Made by a program: the position numbers and the translations under genes
Notes under the pieces: model-generated
What the model was told of the DNA's origin: nothing
The model's database searches: none
What the model saw: only the letters and a program-made list of their open reading frames with translations
Source of the DNA: Fistulifera solaris
Lineage: Eukaryota
Direction: 5' to 3'
Length of the DNA stretch: 64,000 bases
Assembly (NCBI GenBank): GCA_030295235.1
Contig: AP026134.1
Coordinates: 186,001 to 250,000 of the forward strand
Part shown: positions 21,040-58,400 of the stretch, piece by piece
Layout: each line of letters begins with the position of its first letter
How positions within the stretch are numbered: position 1 is the first letter of the stretch

Positions 21040-21131
21040 AAGGTAGACGATGACAGTAATAATTGGGTGATGGTTCGAATGTTTGAATGTTGTCGAGAAG
21101 ATATCGTCCGCCTTTTCGCATCGGCACGCAT

Positions 21132-21391
21132 TGTTGAAACTACGCTATTATTCACAACGAGTTGCAATACTATTACGATTGGCTAACCATTAAAACAAAA
21201 GTGAGAAGAGCGATGCGTCGTTCTCTTCCCTCATCATGCTCTTTCATACGTATTCACTGACGCGATAGCTTTTCGTGGTTTACGTTTCTTTCCAACTACC
21301 GTCCATCCATCCGTCTCACCATCGCATGCGTCATCCGATGTCGCACCTCGAAGAGGATCCCAAGATTCCGTTTCGCGCTGCTTTTCCAACA
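21132..21391 (-). repeat. 3' LTR of the copia element
   Basis: Direct repeat of 26219-26478, differing only by two 1-bp homopolymer indels. Confidence 0.97.
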
Positions 21392-24300
21392 CACTCCCGC
21401 GATCGTGAAGTTCTTTAATGTGACGATCGAGATTGAGCAGCACATCGCGGAAACGAATGAAATGGCTTCCCCTGCAGAGGTTTGGTAAAGAAATCTGCCA
21501 ACATTTCTTCTGTAGGGCAATATTTGACCACGACTTCGCCGCGCAACTCGATCTGTGATGTGAAAGTAGCGAATGTCGATATGTCGAAGTTCTTTTACTG
21601 CTCGAGGCTTTTCCGTTCTTTTCCAATAGAATGGCGCTGTCGTTGTCTTGATACACAATTGATGCTTTGGTGTTATATCCCTGGCAATCCATGAATCTTT
21701 TTGTCCATAACATTTGGCCGATGACTTCGCCGACTCCGGCGAGCTCCGCTTCAGTCGAGCTCGTGGTGTTGATTTTCTGTTTTGTTGACGTGCTGTAAAC
21801 AGCTCCTCGCCTAAGCGTCAAGATTCCACCGGTGTGACTCCGTTTATCAAGATGAACCGCAAATGATGCATCGACCCACCACTGGAGCTCCTCTAAGTTG
21901 TCCGCTTCTAGAGTTAAAGACAATTCACTTGTCGATTGCAGATATTTGAGCACACGGGTCAGCTTTTTCCAGTCGTCCTCATCAGGCGCCTTCACTCTTG
22001 TGCAGAGGAACGCTATCGCAGTTTGCAAGTCGGGTCGTGCTCTCTTGCACAAATATAACATTTTTGCTACCAGGTGCACAAACCGCTCTCTATCCTCTTC
22101 ATTCAGCAACACCGGGTCTTCTGTGTTCACCTCAAATAAATGTGCTGCAGCTGGTGTGGAAGCGTGTCCAATCATTTCTGGTGGCAGCTCGTCAATGATG
22201 TTCTGGACATATTCGGTCATGCAGATTGTTACTTTCCCTTCATCTTCATAATTTATTGTCATGCCAAGATATTCATGGACTTTTCCTCGCGAAACACTAA
22301 GCGGTTCTTCCTTCCCAAATTCCGCATTGAGCTTTGCAATCACATCAGTTACAACTTCCCGGCCGACACGTGTGAGATCTTTATATCATCGACGTGCCAA
22401 AGGATTGTGCATTGGTGTCCGTCAATCATCTTGTTTGCCACACATCGGTCATAAGGGTTGATCACGAAACCCCATTTCTCCAAAGTCTTGGTGAGTAATT
22501 GCCAGAAAAGGTATGCTGCGCGAAGTGTCCCATATAGTGCTTTCTTCAATCTCACATACAGCACAGGTTCTCCCCTTTCCGTAACGACGTATTTCTCATA
22601 TTTGGACGGGTTAATATTAGTGAGGATACGGACCATTTCTCCTGAGATTCTCATTCGAACCAGTTCATCCATGAATGCGTGCATGAAAGCTCCTGGCACG
22701 TCCACAATGCCCACATCACGTTTTTTCTTTTGCATCAATTAGGAACGAGAGGAACACTGCCTCGATGGAAGCGGTTGGTGAGCTGGCATCTTCTTTATTT
22801 ATGTAAGTTCGCTGTTTCCTTCCATCAGCACACCCTCTTCCTTTAATTTTGCCGCAGCGTTTTCTTCTTTAGGTACATCAAATATCGGAGCTTTGAAGCT
22901 TTTCCTCACGTGTCAGTGATCCAGGGTCTTCCGGTTCAATAACATCACGCGTGTCTAACTGTCGGAGTTCTACGTCCACAGCATTCATTCCAGGATCACC
23001 AAAGATCTTAAGGCCTTTTTCCACGGGATATTGCGTGAACATGACAGAGTTGACTACTTCGGCTAGTTGATGGAATAGGTGTCCGTAATCACGTGTGGGT
23101 TTGGCGAAGGTTATAATTGTGAAGGCGTGGGCCATATCGCGCATCCATTTCGTCCTCAGCGGCGTCATGACCTGGATTCTCGTCATTTGCATCATGTGAC
23201 TGCACGCTTTCTTCATCAGCAATCTCTTCATTTGCTTCGGGCTCCACTCCTGTATCATCCACTCCTGGGATCTCCAGTTGGTCAGCATTGGCGGGATCGT
23301 CCTCATCCATGTTACCAAGATTTCCGTCTTCGTTGCTGTTTTCAATTTCAATTTCATTGTTTGCAACATATTCTGCCTCCTGTGGGTCCTCGAATCCAAC
23401 TGTTTCAGTCACTCCTGCGGCGTTGGGATATTCGGGAATGCTAACGACGTCATCATTGTCGGGATGGGGCACCACAGAGGCATCGTCCACATGGTTCAGG
23501 ATCGTAATGTTCACTATGGTTGTATCGATCGGCAAATTCGAGGCCCTCATCAATTTGTGTTGTTTTTGCAAGAAGGTGAACTCGTTCAATAACTTCGTCG
23601 GGCATGGCCACCTTGGTCCAGCGATTGCGGTGGAGTCGTTTCCCAGTAGCGAGGCTGAAGAAAAAATAGGACCCTTGAGCGTTTCCAGTAGGGGCGCAAT
23701 GCAAGTGCACCAACTGTTCGTGGGGCCATTGAGTTATCATGCTTCTCATGTGTCTGCACGCATTACTCCCCAAATTCAAGTTGACAGTGCTTGGTGTAGT
23801 CAATCTGCTGCCCAGAGATCAGCACGCGAGGGCTCAGTGTATCAGAAACCCCATCTCGAGGTGGGAAACAGTTCAGCCAGAAAACATTAAAATAGACCAT
23901 CTCAATTATCAGACGTGGTGGCATGTGTTTGAAAGGAAGACCATTGTATGTAGAGCGGGTACGTTCTTTGACCGTGCGCACATGTCGCTCAATTTCAGGA
24001 ACATGTTCATCCGCAGCAGCCGCATTGAGCTCAATTTTCATTGATGAAGCAAGGTCCCCACGCAGCGGCTCAAATTCATTGTCCATTAGAAGGTGTGTGA
24101 TCTTGAATCCGCGTTTCAGATAGTGCCCATAGACCTGTTCTATCCCATTCAGAAGCGTTTTAGCTGTTCGATTCGAATCATTTCCACCGTTCGAACTTAA
24201 TGTAGCGGGAGATCGTAATTAGAAACGGGATTCGGTTCACAAACATGACGTCACCAGCTAACGTTACTTCATGATGCCGTTCCATGATTTCAACTGGAAC

Positions 24301-26193
24301 ATTCACAACATTGAAACGGACTGCAATTGGAGTGCGGCGAACTGTCTTCCCTTGCAAGGCCTGGACATCAGTCCCAAATATATCTTCCGCATTTTGTATA
24401 TCCTGAGCAGTGATGGGACAATTCGGGATTAAGTTTGCATTCACAAGGCGTTTCATTTGTTTTGTTGTGTGATTCCCTGTACGCCTTTGAATGCTCCGAG
24501 CTAATACAGCACGAGAATACTCTTCATTGGTGTATCTAGATGCATTATCGGCTACTGTGTTTACCATCACCGTTCCATGCATCGGGACTTCCAGATAATA
24601 CAGTCCACCGTCTGACTCCTGGAATTGGCGCGTCTCACCATCTTCCTTGTGAAGAATGAATGCATTTCCATCTCCGCTATCAAAGGTTACCCGGAACTTC
24701 TTCTTCACCAAGGCCAACGATAAGATGTTCGCAATCCCTTGCCGGTAGAACCACACACTGCCGTAACCTCTCAAGTCCGCCATCATGTTGGTCGTTGCCA
24801 CTCCTGCGTTTGTATTGATCCGTAGCGTCCTGTTCACCTTGGCGTATGTTAGTGACCAAACCTGGGTTGCAAAACACGTCCACCGTGGACTGGTTGTCCA
24901 GCAGAATCCAATTTCTCGGGATGCCATTGTATCGTCCTTGCTCGTTCAGCAGTTGAAATCCGTAGTCACCGTCGTCATCGGGAGAATAGTCATCAAAAAT
25001 TCCTCCTGCAGTAAAAAAGCTGTGCTCCATCATCATTTTTATCATTGTCAGCGGCTGGTTTATCATCAGGAAGTATCTCGCGGCAATTTGGAGCAGTGTG
25101 TCCTGGCTTATTGCAGCGGTAACAGGTTCTCTTCTTTCCTTTTCCGTCGTTATTGACCAATGCCACACCGTCTTCAGTGTTCTCTCCATCCTGCACAAAT
25201 ACGGCACCGTCGTTTGCTGTTCCGTATCGTGATGTGTCTTCACGGTCCGGAGTCCATGCTGTCAGTAGCTCATATGCAGCATGCAAAGTCCTCGGATAAT
25301 TGTCCATGCCTTGTAGAACGTCACCATCCAGTTTGTCTTGTAAACGCTTGTATCGAGCTCTGTCTGCACCCTTGATGAATCTTGTTGCCATTGCTTCTTC
25401 CGATGCCTCCATGGCGCTTGCAAAATGCCTCGCTCGACAGAGACCCCACTAATTCATTATTCCGACGGCAGACTTCATTGATCAACCCAATATCATCTCC
25501 AATTGTACCTCCGAGGTGCTTTAACACATCCAAGCGATTCTGAAAACCTTCAATATATGCTGCAACAGAGTCTCCTTTCTTTTGGTAGTAGGTCCAGAAT
25601 CGATGGTGGGCGTTGTCAAGCCGGAAGCGACTCTCTTTTCTGTCTTGTCACTAAAAGCAATCTTCCTGATGAGCTTTAGGAGCTCGACTCCATTACGAGA
25701 TGCTTTGATGCTTGGAAAAGACGCATCTGCTGAGAAGCGGTTAATCAGCATTGGAGTGCACTGTCCCTCAACAAGCGAATAGAGCTTTTTAATATTCTCA
25801 ATCAACTCCATTCTCTGATCCGCGAACGGCATCAACCATTTTGTCCCAAATTCGCTGTTCCGATGCTGGCGATTCGGCTGGAAGTGGATCTGGTGCCGGT
25901 ATTGTTGGAATCTCCAGAGTCTCAACAGCCGCCACCACGTAGCTTGAGTTTTTGAACTTATTATCACTTCCAATGTAAATCGACAGGGCCTTCTGTGATT
26001 TCACAAAGAGGTCGGCTTGGTTGATGATGCCGCAGTCAAAGATGTTTCCCTTCAATGCCTCACAAGCCCCAGTAAACTTAGAGCCGACTGCTGGAGCGCC
26101 GCGGTTGCCCTTCTTCATGTTGTTTGGCTTTCCCCCTCCTGGTTCGAGCTTGTGTCCCCCACTGCCCGTCTTGTCGGGCTTTTCTGAGGACAT
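21234..26193 (-). CDS. gag-pol polyprotein of the copia element (many frame breaks)
   Basis: Successive ORFs from ATG 26193 carry the gag, PR, INT, RT and RH motifs in copia order. Confidence 0.88.
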
Positions 26194-26204
26194 GACACAG
26201 TTTC

Positions 26205-26218
26205 CTTTTGTTTTAATG
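26205..26218 (-). promoter_or_regulatory. Primer-binding-site position (CATTAAAACAAAAG), complementary to LTR segment 26275-26288 rather than tRNA-like
   Basis: Immediately follows the 5' LTR on the element strand, lacks the TGG start, and is a perfect 14-bp inverted repeat of an LTR-internal segment. Confidence 0.75.
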
Positions 26219-26478
26219 TGTTGAAACTACGCTATTATTCACAACGAGTTGCAATACTATTACGATTGGCTAACCATTAAAACAAAAGTGAGAAGAGCGA
26301 TGCGTCGTTCTCTTCCTCATCATGCTCTTTCATACGTATTCACTGACGCGATAGCTTTTCGTGGTTTACGTTTTCTTTCCAACTACCGTCCATCCATCCG
26401 TCTCACCATCGCATGCGTCATCCGATGTCGCACCTCGAAGAGGATCCCAAGATTCCGTTTCGCGCTGCTTTTCCAACA
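26219..26478 (-). repeat. 5' LTR of the copia element
   Basis: Direct repeat of 21132-21391 with TGTTG...CAACA termini. Confidence 0.97.
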
Positions 26479-26733
26479 CGCATCATCACATCATCATCGT
26501 ATCGTCGTCGTCGTTCATTTTTGTGATTTGATTGGGCTTATTGGGCGGGGTCTGTCTTCGCCCGTTCACTTTTTGGCTCGTTTTTTTGTGCACATCATTA
26601 TTTAATTCTGGTTCGTTTCCAGTTCCTATTCAAATTCAAGTAGGAGAGTTTTTTCTAGTTCCATCTATTGTGGCAAAAATCTTTCACTCCTATTTTGATC
26701 CTTTGCTGAGTCGACTTGCTAAGCTACGTAAAA

Positions 26734-50335: not shown

Positions 50336-52317
50336 ATGGTGCGGCAATTGTTGTTCCTTTTCCTCTTGCTGAAAAGTGCAACGGCACGAGACCGGACGGT
50401 CATGAAATTGCAAGCCGATGGGAGCGTGTTAGAATGCACGATGACGAAGAATGGGAAAGAACGTTGTATCGATACGATGAATCCCATGATGGTGTTGGGG
50501 AATGAAGAACACATTTTGCGACAACAAACGAAGGAACGAGAGAAGATGAGAAAGGCGGAGGAGGAAATGAAGAAAGAAAAAAGAGAACCAACGCAACGAA
50601 GCAACCGATGTAGACGAAGAGGAATCGTCTCCTCCGAAAAAAAGGAATGGATTTAAATGCACTCTTGAATTCACCCGAAGCCAAACGACAAATCAAACAA
50701 GCACTCGATTCGGGAGAACAAGTTGATTTGAGTGCAATTGTCGGTTCCACGATTTCACGGGCCTTTGCCAATCTGGGGAAACCTGCTGTACAAGAAGAAG
50801 AGGATGACGATGACGGACCTTCAGGTGTCGAATTGTTGATGAGTGCCGCGTTACGAGCCGCGGCACAACATGCCTCCGGGGATCCGTTTCAAAACCTCAG
50901 CAATCACTCCCGTACGGATCAGTGTGAATTCTTTAACAAAGTCGCCAAAGTACTATCTCGATTCAATGATCCGGATCTGGATATGGAATTGTTCTTACAA
51001 GATCTCATCTCGATTGCGACACCCGATCATGTGGAAGGGGACCCGATTGAGTTGGAGAATATTGTACGGACCAAGCAGAAACTGAAAGATACATTGCAAC
51101 ATCTGTTGGGTCAATTGGGATTGCAGTACTTTCATCCCCTACAATTGTATTATTACATGATCGATGAGGAAATACGCAAGAATTCGGTATGGAAACGTCA
51201 TCGACATCGTTATTTGCCGCCCGTTTCGAAAGAAGAAGTACTTCAAATGATAGATGGATTATATCTGTCGCAGCTCGCTTACAGTAAGAATTGTAATACT
51301 ATTCAAAGGCATGTGGAGCAATTTCAGATCGATCCCGTCTCCGGTAATAGTCTGTGGACGTTGCGTAATTGTTCGGTGCACTCGGAACGCTTTCATCCAG
51401 CGCATTATATGATGGTGCAGCATTCTAAAAGCTCGATGCCACTGGAGGTTGCCTTGATCATTCGAGGATCACAACAACAGGCCGATTATCTATCGGCCGG
51501 AGCGCTCCATGCTGTGCCGTACCGTGGTGGATTCGTCCACGAAGGTGTACGGAACAGTGCACAGTGGATTCGTGGAACATACGAAAACGACTTGCAACAG
51601 CTCTTACAGGAACATCGCCAGACACAAAGCAATAAAAAGGTACCACTCAAGTTGTATCTCATGGGTCATTCGTTAGGAGGAGCTACAGCATCTGTAGCTT
51701 CGATGGAATTTAACGACGTGGCTGAATTTGAAGCCTTCGCAGTTGGCTTCGGAAGTCCGGCGTCCTTGTCGCCAAATCTGTCGCGGACCATGAAAGATCG
51801 GATCACCTCGGTGGTGAATGACGCAGACTGCGTACCCCGTATGTCGGCAAAATCCATCGTGGATGCTTGGAAGAGAGTTTTGCAGTTTGATTTCACCAGC
51901 CTGTGTCTCGATGATGTGAATCAGTTGGAGCCGATTCTCCGCAGCAAACTTTCCATACTTGGGAATTGGACCGAAAGCATGCTAAACAGTATGCAGACGA
52001 CGGTGGAAGACAAGATCCGAAAGGAGGCTAAAAAACAGTTAAGTCATGCCCAGAAAGTTTTGGTAAATGCGAGCAGCGACCCGTATGAATCGTTAGTTCC
52101 GGCCGGTGATTGTGTCCATTTCTACCGGGATGGGACGTCGTGGCAGAGTGTTTACATCGATTGCCAACAATTTTACGAAATTGAAGTTGTCCCGCACATG
52201 ATTGACGACCATTTAGTTGCAGGAGGCTATTACCATGGAATGCTCGCCTATTTGAGAAAGCTTGATAAGGACACAAACTTCAGGCCTTTGCATGAGGTAG
52301 ACAGTTTGCGCGTCTAA
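50336..52317 (+). CDS. Secreted class 3 lipase, copy 1 (indel near 50590-50640)
   Basis: Signal peptide, IRGS, VHEGV, GHSLGG, VVNDADCVPR and DDH. Confidence 0.85.
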
Positions 52318-52384
52318 AACTTTTGCTTTTGTGTCCTTTGATTAATTTGTTAAATGATTATTACCATATTTTATTTTTGACCAA

Positions 52385-52482
52385 GATGCTTCGACTTGAA
52401 CTTTGTCTAGATCTGACCATGGGTGTGCTGCGTTTGGTCCCGATTCGTGCTTGTTTGGAACGAGCATGCGGTGGGCCTCGTC
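52385..52482 (-). pseudogene. Degenerate duplicate of the 3' end of the Sec7 ARF-GEF gene
   Basis: GATGCTTCGACTTGAACTTT...CTGAC...TGCTGC.TTTGGT...CGAGCATG.GG.GGGCCTCGTC matches 55460-55568. Confidence 0.75.
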
Positions 52483-53383: not shown

Positions 53384-55393
53384 ATGGTGCGTAAGATATG
53401 GCTGTTTTTTCTTCTCCTTCACAATGGGAATGCTCGAGATCAGACCGTTATGAATAATATACAAGCCGATGGCACCGTTTTGGAATGCACTGCGATGAAG
53501 AATGACGACAATCGTGGTATCGATGTCATGGATCCAGTTCTGAAGAACGAAGAGAACAATTTGCGGCTACTAAAGCCGGAGGAGAAACGTCGAGCAGAGG
53601 AAATGATGGAGGGGAACCAAGTGAAACAAGAAGAAGAAATGAAAGACGATTTAGAGGAGGAGGAGGAACAAGCCTCGGAAAAGAAAAAGTCGGAAGGAAT
53701 GGATCTAATTGCTTTATTAGATACACCCCAAGCCAAACGACTAATCAAGCGAGCGTTGGATTCGGGCGAACAAGTCGATCTAAGTGCCATTGTGAGTTCC
53801 ACGTTATCGCACACCGTTGCCAACCTCGGCCAACCGAACCTTGGTCAAGCGAAACCAATGATCGCACTGACAGAAAATAATGAGGAAGATAAACTTTCGG
53901 GTGTGGAATTGTTAATGTCCGCGGCATTACGAGATGCGGCGCAACAAGCATCAGGGGATCCATCTCAAAATGTACGTCCCGAGCAGAACAATTTCTTTCA
54001 CCAAGTTGCCAAAGCCATCTCCCGAAGCAATGATCTTGGTCTAGATACGGAGTCGTCTTTACAAAATCTCATCACCATTGCCGCACCCGATCATCCTACG
54101 GAAGGGGAACCGATTGGATTAAGCGATATTGTGCGGGGGAAGCAGATACTCCTAGATACATTAAAACATTTACTCGGTCAGTTGGGACTGCAGTATTTTC
54201 ATCCCATACAAGTGTATTACTACATGATCGATGAGGAAAACAGAAAAGATCCCATATGGAAACGTCATCTTCATCGCTATTTGCCACCAGTTCCGAAAGA
54301 AAAAGTACTACGTATGACGGATGGATTATATCTGTCACAGCTCGCCTACAGCAACAATTGCACACAGATTCAAAGCCATGTTGTTGGAGAATTTCAGATC
54401 GATCCCAACGGCCATAAAGGTCTCTGGACCTTACGAAATTGCTCTGCACATTCCAAACTTTTTCAACCAGCGCATTTTATGATGGTGCAGCAGCCACTAC
54501 CCAAGAGTTCGGTCCCACTCGAGGTAGCCTTGGTTATTCGAGGAACACATCAGCCAGCTGATTTTCTAACGGACGGAGCTCTCAATGCCGTTCCTTACCG
54601 CGGTGGGTTTGTACACGAGGGTGTATGGAACAGTGCGCAGTGGATTCGTGAAACATACGAAAACGATCTCAAAATGCTCTTGCAGCAACATCGAAACACT
54701 CAAAAGAATGCCAAATTACCACTCAAGGTGTATCTCATTGGTCATTCGTTAGGTGGAGCTGCAGCATCTGTAGCGGCTATTGAATTCAACGACGTGCCCG
54801 GATTCGAAGCATACGCAGTCGGCTTCGGGAGTCCATCGTCATTGTCGCCGATTTTGTCTCGGGCCATGAAAAATCGGATTATCACGGTGGTGAACGACGC
54901 TGACTGTGTACCCCGCATGTCGGCAAGATCCATTGTTAGTGCTTGGATACAGATTCTGCAATTCAATTTCACGGATCTGTGTCTAAATGATCTAAATCGG
55001 ATGATGCCCATCATCAAAAGCAAATATGCTGTTTTTGGACCTTTGACCGAAGTCATGCTAAATGATTGGCGTTCGAAAATGGAGGACCAAATCCGGAAAG
55101 AAGCGACAAAGCAATTAAGCAGGACCCAAAAAGCTGTAGCAAACGCGAGCATTGACCAGTATGAAATGTTGATTCCTATTGGTGACTGTGTCCACTTCTA
55201 CCGGGATGGGACATCGTGGCAAAGCGTTTACATCGACTGCCTACAATTCCAAGAAATTGAAGTCGTTCCGCACATGATCGATGACCACTCTGTTTCAGGA
55301 GGCTATTACCCTGGAATGCTCGGCTACCTAAGAAAGCTTGAAAAGAATTTAAACTTCAGGCCTTTGCATGAAGCAGACAAATTAAGTGTATGA
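53384..55393 (+). CDS. Secreted class 3 lipase, copy 2
   Basis: Signal peptide, GHSLGG and VVNDADCVPR. Colinear with copy 1 along its length. Confidence 0.88.
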   Translation: MVRKIWLFFLLLHNGNARDQTVMNNIQADGTVLECTAMKNDDNRGIDVMDPVLKNEENNLRLLKPEEKRRAEEMMEGNQVKQEEEMKDDLEEEEEQASEKKKSEGMDLIALLDTPQAKRLIKRALDSGEQVDLSAIVSSTLSHTVANLGQPNLGQAKPMIALTENNEEDKLSGVELLMSAALRDAAQQASGDPSQNVRPEQNNFFHQVAKAISRSNDLGLDTESSLQNLITIAAPDHPTEGEPIGLSDIVRGKQILLDTLKHLLGQLGLQYFHPIQVYYYMIDEENRKDPIWKRHLHRYLPPVPKEKVLRMTDGLYLSQLAYSNNCTQIQSHVVGEFQIDPNGHKGLWTLRNCSAHSKLFQPAHFMMVQQPLPKSSVPLEVALVIRGTHQPADFLTDGALNAVPYRGGFVHEGVWNSAQWIRETYENDLKMLLQQHRNTQKNAKLPLKVYLIGHSLGGAAASVAAIEFNDVPGFEAYAVGFGSPSSLSPILSRAMKNRIITVVNDADCVPRMSARSIVSAWIQILQFNFTDLCLNDLNRMMPIIKSKYAVFGPLTEVMLNDWRSKMEDQIRKEATKQLSRTQKAVANASIDQYEMLIPIGDCVHFYRDGTSWQSVYIDCLQFQEIEVVPHMIDDHSVSGGYYPGMLGYLRKLEKNLNFRPLHEADKLSV

Positions 55394-55455
55394 TTGTGGT
55401 CTAATAACCTTGGTGTGTCTTTTGATTGTTTACTATGTACTACCATGATTTTTGT

Positions 55456-58400
55456 CTACGATGCTTCGACTTGAACTTTTTCTGGTTCTGACATTGGGGG
55501 TGCTGCTTTTGGTGCCAAATCGGAGTTGCTTTGAGTAGGACTTACACGAGCATGAGGAGGGCCTCGTCCCTGTTGTGGTTGGCCTCGTCCTTGCAGATTA
55601 GGAGGTACTCCTCGTCCACGAGCATTGAGAACATGAGGTGGGGGCCCTCCTGGACCTCGATAGTTGGGCGGTGGCTCACCACGCCCACCGCGAATGGGAC
55701 CGCCGCGGACGGGCGGTGGTGCATTCCGAAGATTTGGTGGAGGAACGGATCGCGCGTTGGGAGAAGGGCTACCTCTCGCATTTGGAGAAAGGCTTACTCG
55801 TACATTTGGAGGAAGGCTTGCCCGTGGTGGTTGCGTAGGGCTCCCTCGGACGACCGGAGAAGACGGACCTTGAGCACTTGGTGTGTTGACGGTTATTGGT
55901 GTCGGTTTCGGTTTTGTCGCCTTCTGATTGTGCACTGATGCTCCTGCTGCTCCAACGCGCTCGAGCTCTGAAAGCAATATTTCGCTGGCCCATGAGCTGA
56001 ACTCAGTGTCACCCTTCCACTCTTCGGTAACCATGAGGTTCGATAAATAAGTCACCGTCTGTAGCGTTTTTTCGAACAATGGAGACACTTTACCCCGACG
56101 TCCCTGTCGTAAGTTTTCTCGTGCGAGTTGGGCAAACTGTTGCATAATATCAACCAAATCGTCGCGGATTTCTTTGTCGTGGCTCAAATGAGGTAAAACG
56201 TGCGAAGCAAGTTGACCGAGTAACGAGAAAGTAGTCCCACGACTCGCGTCCGCAGTCACCGGGGTTGTTTGTTCGCCATCAAATACATGATGTCAATCCA
56301 CTTATCTCCGTTAATCTCACTGATATCGGTTCGAATCACCACACGTCTGAAACATTTAGCACCTTCTGAGGACAGTTCAGCATCGGAAGATCTGCAGACC
56401 GTGTAAATTGCAACAGCCATATTCTGGAAAAGCTCTTCGTTCGGAGCTGCTTTTGTGGCGTCCTCAACCTTTCTCTCAGTCTGTTGCAACTCCAATTCGA
56501 CGATGTGACGATATACTTTCTCCAAACATAGCATGGCAGGTACCGAAAAAGCGACATCGCCTTGATAGAATGCGAGGACGAAACGTATAAGAATTTTGGA
56601 GATTTCGATCGAAGCATCCATGGTCAATATAGAATGCTCTTCTGTATTGGTAGTATCCTGAGCGTCCACCTGGGAAAGAGCGTATTCGACTGTGGATGCT
56701 ATTCCATCGAAAACAAACACTCGAGAATTGTTGAAATGAGCTAGCGTGTCCATCGTATCACCAAGGAACGTCCAGTCATTCGGCGTGTCGAACAAGAAGT
56801 AGCTGTTTCGTAAAACAATCGCAAGACCACAAGCCATGCGGTCGGCAATGACCTTGATGAAATTTTTGGGTAAAGACATCATTACGAGATGCAAAGAAGC
56901 TTTTAGCTGGCCTCGTGTCTAAAGCAGATATGACGTGTTAGATCAATTGCCCAAAAACGCCTGCCTCCGAGAACTCCTTAATATCCTCTAGCTTACCTCT
57001 TCAATATCATATAAATGTATACAGCATCGGAGGATCGTAACCACAATTCTTTCGATCACAAACGGAGCAGGTACTTTGGTCGAAGTAACAGTGCTAAGCA
57101 CCACTTCAAACTTGTTCAAGAAAGGTATGAACCACTCGAGTGCATGATCTCGGTTCGACAACAGGGCTCTTGTGGCTAATTCAATACTAAAGATTGCATG
57201 CTGTTCACCCACAGGATCATGTTTAAATGGGAAATCATCCAAGCAGTCGATTTGTAGCTGTATTTTTCGTTTCACATCTGACTGGCCCGTTGCAAGATGA
57301 ACGACAGCCTCAACATCGGACGCTTCTGCTATTTCCAAGAGAGCTTTCGCAACCTTTGAGAGCTTGTTTCTTCTTCCCGGTAGTCCCAGTTGATCTGCCA
57401 GCTCGTCGGTGTCTTTGGAAGTTCTTCTAAAAATTGACCGAAGCCATCCTTTATTCTTTGCTGCCTTCTCTTCTTCGCTGTGGGCACGGTATACTTCTTC
57501 TAATCGCCTCTGCGAAGTTTTTGCAAAGGTAGATTGAGGTAGAACGTTGCCATTACTGTCAGCAAAATCATCCAAGTCCGTCATCCCACCAGGCAGCGCA
57601 TGTGCGTCTCGAAGGGCGCAAATACATTCGATAAAAGACGGCCAAGCTGATACAACTCGAGCAGTATATTTCCGGACGACAATGAAACCGCAGTCCAATG
57701 CAAGTAGACCTCTATGATATGTGCTTCCAGTGATGTCGACGTCCTCCTTGCCTCCGTATGAACAAAGTAATCCATAGGGAATTGGGCGCCCAAGTCCATC
57801 ACTGTCGAAGTCGTCGTCCCCCTCCTTGCCAAGATGCGAATCGTTGGCAGTTTGGCTACCTGAGCTGTCTGTAACTATTGCGTTCATCACATAGTCCGTA
57901 CCCATAGGGAGTAAAATATTTAAAACTTCATCAAGAATAGAGCCGCACTCGAAATATGCCGCAACCTTACAGATTGTTTGAAGACCATTGAGTGCCTTCA
58001 CCACCAAGCCGTCATCCCAAGAGCGCTGAAAAATCCCAGCAAAAGCTTGAATGGCTGGCTTTGCGAGTCCAATGAACATCTCTTTGTGGTGGAATCCAGC
58101 GACCTGACTTGTTGAACGTGAAACACCAGCTTGTGAAAAGAACGGCAACGCTACTTCCCCTTTCTTCGATATCATGTTATCCCAGACCTTACGGAAGTCC
58201 TCTTGCTCGCCGTGCTGTTTAATAATATCACCCAATTCCTTTCGTACTTCGATTTGCTTGTTTTTGATCTGGTTATAAAGTTCTACAAGAAAGTCTTCTG
58301 GTAGATCTTCCCCGTCATTGATGCCACGGTTATTCTTTATAAATTGCTCCAATGTCATGCGATTTTCTTGTTTGATCATCGGATTGTGCAGGTCAGTGTT

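Follow-up and report, generated by a model that had tools for sequence, protein, structure and literature searches.

A diatom Ty1/copia lineage in which the element's own RNA 5' end probably primes reverse transcription

What primes reverse transcription in a Ty1/copia-type retrotransposon when the bases that follow its 5' long terminal repeat (LTR) do not begin with TGG, and are the exact reverse complement of a segment within that same LTR? The question is raised by an element on the minus strand of a 64,000 nt stretch of the Fistulifera solaris genome (contig AP026134.1; the whole stretch is referred to here as the window, and coordinates are those of the window), for which a first-pass annotation had proposed that a diatom copia lineage is self-primed in the manner of Tf1. 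The element is present as a single copy in the 64 kb window, and its parts are as follows.

26479..26483, minus strand: target-site duplication (TSD) ATGCG, upstream copy
26478-21132, minus strand: LTR retrotransposon, 5,347 nt
26219..26478, minus strand: 5' LTR, 260 nt, TGTTG...CAACA, a direct repeat of 21132-21391
26191..26193, minus strand: gag start codon (ORF 25798-26193), 25 nt past the LTR
21234..26193, minus strand: gag-pol with zinc knuckle, RVT_2 reverse transcriptase and RNase H, about 11 ORFs, frameshifted as assembled
21392..21398, minus strand: polypurine-like tract GGGAGTG, abutting the 3' LTR and within the pol reading frame
21132..21391, minus strand: 3' LTR, TGTTG...CAACA, in which CTCA and the LTR arm (see below) occur again at 21205-21188
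21127..21131, minus strand: TSD ATGCG, downstream copy

Where the LTRs begin and end is set independently by the LTR pair and by the 5 bp TSD, an identical 5-mer outside both LTRs. The two LTRs share 99.2% identity and differ only by two 1-nt homopolymer indels. The element is a recent insertion of the Ty1/copia type, and the traits of that group that are present include the TG...CA LTR ends, the 5 bp TSD (ATGCG) and a gag CCHC knuckle.

The CCHC zinc knuckle is encoded in the ORF 24993-25412 (zf-CCHC, 22.9 bits against a cut-off of 20.8 bits). The ORF covering reverse transcriptase (RT) and RNase H (21234-22343) is 88% identical to P0001, a 1651 aa protein of the diatom F. solaris, which is also the closest named protein to it. 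Pfam RVT_2 is found at residues 1103-1334 of P0001 with a score above the cut-off (59.6 bits); the window fragment 22349-22738, whose reading frame is broken, for that reason falls short of the 31.6-bit cut-off with 22.7 bits. In P0001, about 730 aa separate the zinc knuckle (356-372) from the RT, and the C-terminal remainder is too short for an integrase. Pfam integrase models gave no match at E ≤ 1 to the intervening 600 aa of a related locus (L005), and a PDB profile search for an integrase returned the zinc knuckle as its sole match. Of three public runs compared, X1 alone contains the element, and 1-nt indels (e.g., at 21228, 21469, 21587, 22360, 22721 and 24841) set its contigs apart from the window; among these contigs are also copies that are 10-15% diverged. 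The near-identical LTRs and these indel differences suggest that the frameshifts are assembly indel errors rather than decay, and the frameshifts and diverged copies together probably reflect long-read indel errors plus related families in the same genome. Since the coding region is frameshifted as assembled, the competence of the window copy itself is only putative.

The polyprotein ORF extends about 157 nt into the 3' LTR (21234-21391, minus strand), as also seen in L005 and L006, so that U3 encodes the C-terminal tail of Pol. TGTTG, where the LTR starts, is part of the codons for a conserved ..RSVL.. motif, and the polypurine-like tract also belongs to the coding sequence; in relatives AGGAGTG is found just ahead of TGTTG, within the codons of this motif. 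The polyprotein stop codon lies about 50 nt upstream of the CTCA motif described below. Elsewhere in the window, on the plus strand, are two ORFs in tandem, 556 and 669 aa long (50647-52317 and 53384-55393), that match Pfam Lipase_3 (E values of 1e-16 and 8e-18); these class-3 lipase ORFs occur within a duplication of about 2.1 kb, the copies of which are 72% identical (50384-52482 and 53432-55568).

The features on which the question of priming turns are clustered around the point where the 5' LTR stops.

26289..26292, minus strand: CTCA, initiator-like, directly 5' of the arm; inferred start at 26288
26275..26288, minus strand: putative self-primer CTTTTGTTTTAATG, the exact reverse complement of 26218-26205 and the inferred RNA's opening 14 nt
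26219..26274, minus strand: 56-nt loop (remaining R + U5), forming an internal hairpin inside the panhandle on folding
26205..26218, minus strand: putative primer-binding site CATTAAAACAAAAG, starting at the first base after CAACA, not tRNA-like

The 5' LTR terminus reads ...AGTTTCAACA (minus strand, ending at 26219; also given as ...TTTCAACA), and CATTAAAACAAAAG follows without a spacer. The site and the LTR arm are complementary at 14/14 nt, with an offset of 0 from the LTR end, and a second copy of the arm 14-mer is found in the 3' LTR (21201-21188). At up to one mismatch the 14-mer occurs at three places in the 64 kb, both strands counted, where shuffles lead to an expectation of 0.09. When the LTR was shuffled 20,000 times, the longest complement to sites beginning 0-5 nt past the LTR was 11 nt. 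Another primer site would have no space, as the gag ATG (26193) is 25 nt past the LTR. The first-pass annotation had described a site abutting the LTR with neither spacer nor TGG (26218-26205, minus strand), its exact 14-nt reverse complement in the LTR, 56 nt before the LTR end (26288-26275), and an initiator-like TCA directly ahead of it, and each of these was found as described, the TCA at 26291-26289.

Whether this arrangement is peculiar to one copy was examined among relatives of the element. A protein search returned 1,392 long relatives at E ≤ 1e-10; 30 full-length polyproteins were aligned and 74 loci were then retrieved from metagenome contigs, while a scan of the polyprotein alignment against viral contigs found no relatives. 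All 318,228 nt of the loci were scanned, blind to position, for exact inverted repeats of at least 13 nt with loops of 15-450 nt. Gag 5' ends are present in 42 of the 74 loci and the junction in three more (45 in total), the other 29 being without a gag 5' end. In 31 of the 45 junction loci an exact inverted repeat 14-17 nt long shares this geometry: the 5' arm follows a TCA-like triplet, the 3' arm lies at the ..CAAC(A) end of the LTR, and the loops are 39-191 nt long. In two others (L015 and L023) the site lies beside a truncated 5' LTR and its complement is found in the 3' LTR copy, and in a further two the repeat is imperfect (L026, with 12 nt and a 3-nt spacer, and L062, with one 1-nt indel). 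The LTR is too short to judge in L012, L027, L028, L033, L055, L061 and L074. Three loci (L034, L048 and L052) have an LTR-gag junction without a complement, and these have no intact gag start; there is no ATG, and homology begins only from query residue 29-72 on. As a background, 207 further 800-nt windows were taken from the same set of loci; an inverted repeat of at least 14 nt was detected in 3, and 170 had none of 10 nt or more. The Tf1-like geometry that had been read from a single copy is real and is kept in 31 relatives, besides the four split or imperfect cases, and the loss of complementarity in relatives that the first-pass annotation had asked after was not seen.

Several loci have unusual structures. 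Contigs of about 5.1-5.9 kb (L005, L006, L014, L019, L029, L049, L056 and L063) have terminal overlaps of 104-278 nt, which are coding, and carry one LTR. These one-LTR contigs of about 5.3 kb are circular permutations, as expected if assembly collapses the two LTRs, and one-LTR circles are a possible alternative to such collapse. At L044:2161-3443 and L058:3323-3673, beside or within element sequence, are large nested palindromes whose arms reach 86 and 56 nt, respectively. L058 is atypical: its LTR end is unclear, it sits in a large palindrome, and its LTR leader region seems to be present as an inverted duplicate. In L011 some 700 nt separate the arm/site pair (2241-2379) from the first ATG of the gag-homologous ORF downstream (3084), which suggests that the leader is long, or that an N-terminal extension or an additional ORF has gone unrecognised.

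The arm and the site vary in sequence between relatives and they vary together. RNAalifold, applied to 11 loci of similar loop length, predicted one helix only, a 15 bp duplex between arm and site. For 14 of its 15 pairs, at least one sequence differs on both sides and still pairs, so the compensatory changes that had been suggested as a check across related copia elements were found in this 11-sequence alignment. Pairing cells amount to 99.3% in the same alignment, compared to 62.3% when shuffled (0/500 shuffles as high), and sliding the partner by 1-3 columns leaves 39-48% of the cells paired; the covariation score is 0.851 against 0.197. These counts come from 11 of 16 leaders aligned with MAFFT, the remaining five (L002, L006, L019, L054 and L060) having been dropped for misplaced arms and not for absent pairing, as exact arms occur in all five.

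The edge of the arm distal to the site is marked by a motif. In the 31 elements, the bases at -4 to -1 relative to the arm are CTCA (C in 27, T in 29, C in 30 and A in 31), Y and W come next at +1 and +2, and over the 60 nt that precede the arm no motif other than CTCA is conserved; no TATA-like or other promoter motif is conserved from -60 to -5. Of 32 elements, 27 have the base that immediately follows the TCA-like triplet as their first paired base, and 28 fit TCAHW. An initiator-like motif of diatoms, TCAH+1W with +1 after TCA, was put forward by Kadono et al. in 2015 (PMC4686930). CTCA|YW fits this motif, which would make the first paired base the 5' end of the RNA and bears out the earlier description of the TCA as initiator-like; this pointer to the start is indirect but pointed. 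With a start just after CTCA, the RNA would open with the putative primer, 14 nt long in 21 elements and 15 nt long in 8. Contig ends were used as a proxy for transcript ends, and no metagenomic locus starts at the arm or ends in poly(A). The reading of CTCA as a poly(A) cleavage site was rejected, as it would leave no R after the cut, making strand transfer impossible for any primer model that uses the CATTAAAACAAAAG site.

Downstream of the arm, a semi-conserved CTAG, CTGG or TAGG was noted, with CTA, CTG or TAG among the next six bases of about 22 of the 32 elements (counted by eye), and this may mark the cleavage site. GTT occurs after the arm in about 10 of 32 elements (also by eye) and could base-pair with AAC where the LTR ends. 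In the window the bases after the arm are GTTAGCC (26268-26274), and its predicted fold includes a short GTT/AAC extension beside the LTR end.

Taken together, conservation and covariation among relatives support the earlier proposal, and it is probable that this diatom copia lineage primes minus-strand DNA synthesis with its own RNA 5' end, as Tf1 does. Transcription would begin at the base after CTCA in the 5' LTR (26288), and the first 14 nt would fold back across the 56-nt loop to pair with 26218-26205. A cut at the 3' end of the duplex, made by the RNase H of the element or by another nuclease, would then free the 3'-OH of a G that is paired to the first post-LTR base. Extension from this G would copy ...ACAAC as its first bases and so recreate the LTR end. 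The strong-stop DNA would transfer via the R that lies between the cut and the poly(A) site of the 3' LTR. If the self-priming model holds, the poly(A) site must lie within the 56-nt loop, in the 3' LTR copy.

An alternative that retains self-priming is that the primer acts in trans, a 14-nt 5' end being supplied by a co-packaged second RNA or by a short LTR transcript. Complementarity and covariation are compatible with cis and trans annealing alike, and pseudovirid particles contain two RNA copies according to the ICTV profile (PMC8515867). Against this, the arm and the site always occur within one LTR-leader unit, 39-191 nt apart, and all 12 of 12 arm-to-site RNAs adopt a cis panhandle when folded, at lower energies than their own shuffles (z-scores of -2.5 to -5.1), including the window RNA from 26288, in which the arm/site duplex closes the panhandle (z = -4.3). 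The priming of Tf1 is likewise described as intramolecular, and trans priming is considered unlikely.

The duplex could also be a structural stem of U5 and the leader, with a role in packaging, in dimerisation, in the control of translation or in masking the site, while another RNA acts as primer. Functional U5/leader structures near the primer site are found in retroviruses and reportedly, from an RNA-structure study, in Ty1 as well, and the arm is only a presumed free 5' end. The register of the helix argues against such a role, however, because its 3' arm begins at the first post-LTR base in 8 of 31 elements, or one base inside the LTR in the other 23, and position at the LTR end is what defines a primer site. 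As the pairing takes in the last A of the LTR in these 23, the position of the cut is not fixed by sequence. At the opposite edge, pairing ends exactly at CTCA in the 27 elements mentioned above. There is, moreover, no other primer sequence in the space before the gag ATG of the window, and the AT-rich sites, of which 29 are distinct, cannot all match a single host primer. A purely structural stem therefore appears quite improbable, and self-priming is still preferred.

The conventional possibility is that a host tRNA, half-tRNA or tRNA fragment is the primer and that the match to the LTR is incidental. Host tRNA priming is the norm for the Pseudoviridae in the ICTV profile (PMC8515867), and half-tRNA primers exist in copia lineages (PMC6317226). 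The sites do not resemble such targets. Site diversity was assessed in the window and 30 loci, the 31 elements whose LTR end is defined, and no site starts with TGG (0/31); the 29 distinct sites fall into 21 groups with a mean GC content of 18%. Host tRNA sites should stay constant among relatives, whereas here the site changes together with its LTR complement, for which a tRNA primer would have no need. No Rfam family, tRNA-like families included, was matched within the element at E ≤ 1, and no tRNA genes were found in the 64 kb window or in 12 long related loci. Host tRNA priming, a trait of the Pseudoviridae, is thus not seen in this element, the site being AT-rich, without TGG and complementary to its own LTR, and the hypervariability of the sites argues, though only indirectly, for rejecting a tRNA primer, which is very unlikely here. 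Such priming is a usual property of the family and not a phylogenetic criterion. Lastly, that the match arose by chance or as an artefact of a single assembled copy has a negligible likelihood, for even though the assembly has indel errors or differences, none of the 20,000 shuffles reached 12 nt, the arm is present in both LTR copies, and the same architecture recurs in 31 independent metagenomic loci, which refute it.

To our knowledge, experimental proof of self-primed reverse transcription exists only for gypsy elements of the Tf1 type. The maintenance of a perfect 14-17 bp duplex by compensatory change in 31 independent elements is strong comparative evidence, and it indicates that self-priming probably operates in Ty1/copia too, in a major group of marine algae. 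The elements provide a natural series of primers and sites with which the recognition and cutting of an RNA-RNA duplex could be tested. Self-primed elements would not depend on the host tRNA supply, and would escape silencing that is based on tRNA fragments. Pipelines that retain only LTR candidates with a tRNA-type primer-binding site would discard such elements, so that the copia content of diatoms may be under-counted; the LTRdigest filter applied to Cyclotella cryptica may be of this kind, as far as its description goes (PMC7466962).

Among known systems, the diatom Ty1/copia-like elements of CoDi groups 1-7 were described by Maumus et al. (2009; PMC2806351). The present elements resemble them in size (about 5-6 kb), in having short LTRs (163 bp in Blackbeard), in the 5 bp class of TSD and in their occurrence in ocean metagenomes (PMC2806351). 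The main text of that paper never mentions tRNA, priming or a primer-binding site, and 'PBS' is used there for a wash buffer. In openly available full texts, including a 2025 preprint on diatom transposable elements, no report of self-priming in diatom copia elements was found.

In the fungal GalEa copia elements a Conserved Hairpin Site replaces the primer-binding site (Donnart et al., 2017; PMC5445492), and GalEa belongs to copia 'branch 1', which is also home to the diatom CoDi clades (PMC5445492). Both GalEa and the diatom element are copia elements without a tRNA-type primer site, and both have a conserved structure in its place. The GalEa site is a local palindrome or hairpin that includes the last A of the LTR, and as its authors report finding no LTR complement it does not fit the Tf1 model (PMC5445492). 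The diatom elements differ in having the complement in the LTR, 39-191 nt upstream.

Self-primed reverse transcription was described in Tf1 and Tf2, of the Tf1/sushi group of Ty3/gypsy chromoviruses (Levin, 1995-1998; PMC10085805), and Tf1 requires a three-duplex 'pretzel' according to the same source. As in Tf1, the site of the diatom element directly follows the 5' LTR, within which lies the segment that it complements (here the presumed transcript start), there is no complementarity to tRNA as judged from the site sequences, and a fold-back panhandle surrounds an internal hairpin. As in the Tf1 group, the duplex is kept among relatives while its sequence varies. The two differ in duplex length, which is 14-15 bp here and 11 in Tf1, and cleavage by RNase H is proven in Tf1, whereas it is a presumed step in the diatom element. 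The additional 'pretzel' duplex adjacent to the primer-binding site was not found: a comparison of the 14 nt past the site with the loop gave a mean complement of 5.03 nt, versus 4.70 nt when shuffled, so that in having no conserved third duplex the structure looks like a simpler panhandle with internal hairpins. Unlike Tf1, the element has an RVT_2 (copia-type) RT near the C-terminus, and no chromodomain match was found in it; membership of the Tf1/sushi clade was rejected on these grounds. The element works like Tf1, to the extent that the self-priming model is correct, and stands outside the Tf1 clade.

The first-pass annotation had stated that copia elements are normally primed by tRNA, which agrees with the family description by the ICTV, but self-priming had already been predicted for the TAR lineage of plant Ty1/copia elements by Neumann et al. 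(2019), who also cite an earlier proposal of self-priming for Houba/Osr-1 (PMC6317226). Self-priming in Ty1/copia is therefore, as a prediction, not new. Their criterion was a stretch of at least 10 bp of the 5' LTR that is complementary to a region starting 0-5 bp past the LTR (PMC6317226), and the diatom element, which is Ty1/copia like TAR, falls within it. It differs from TAR in its host and lineage (diatom and environmental), and in that covariation statistics and an initiator motif at the edge of the arm are available here, neither of which is given for TAR in the text of that study (PMC6317226). A broader reading is slightly favoured, in which a large, mostly marine clade of diatom copia elements does without host tRNA primers, a promoter-coupled self-primer of 14-15 nt is set by CTCA|YW, and a pretzel-free panhandle suffices. 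On this reading self-priming would have an independent and simpler origin (or an ancestral form) in the Pseudoviridae, and LTR annotation filters based on tRNA would systematically miss the clade. What is new is a lineage-level case of the self-primed class, in a superfamily where it has so far only been predicted.
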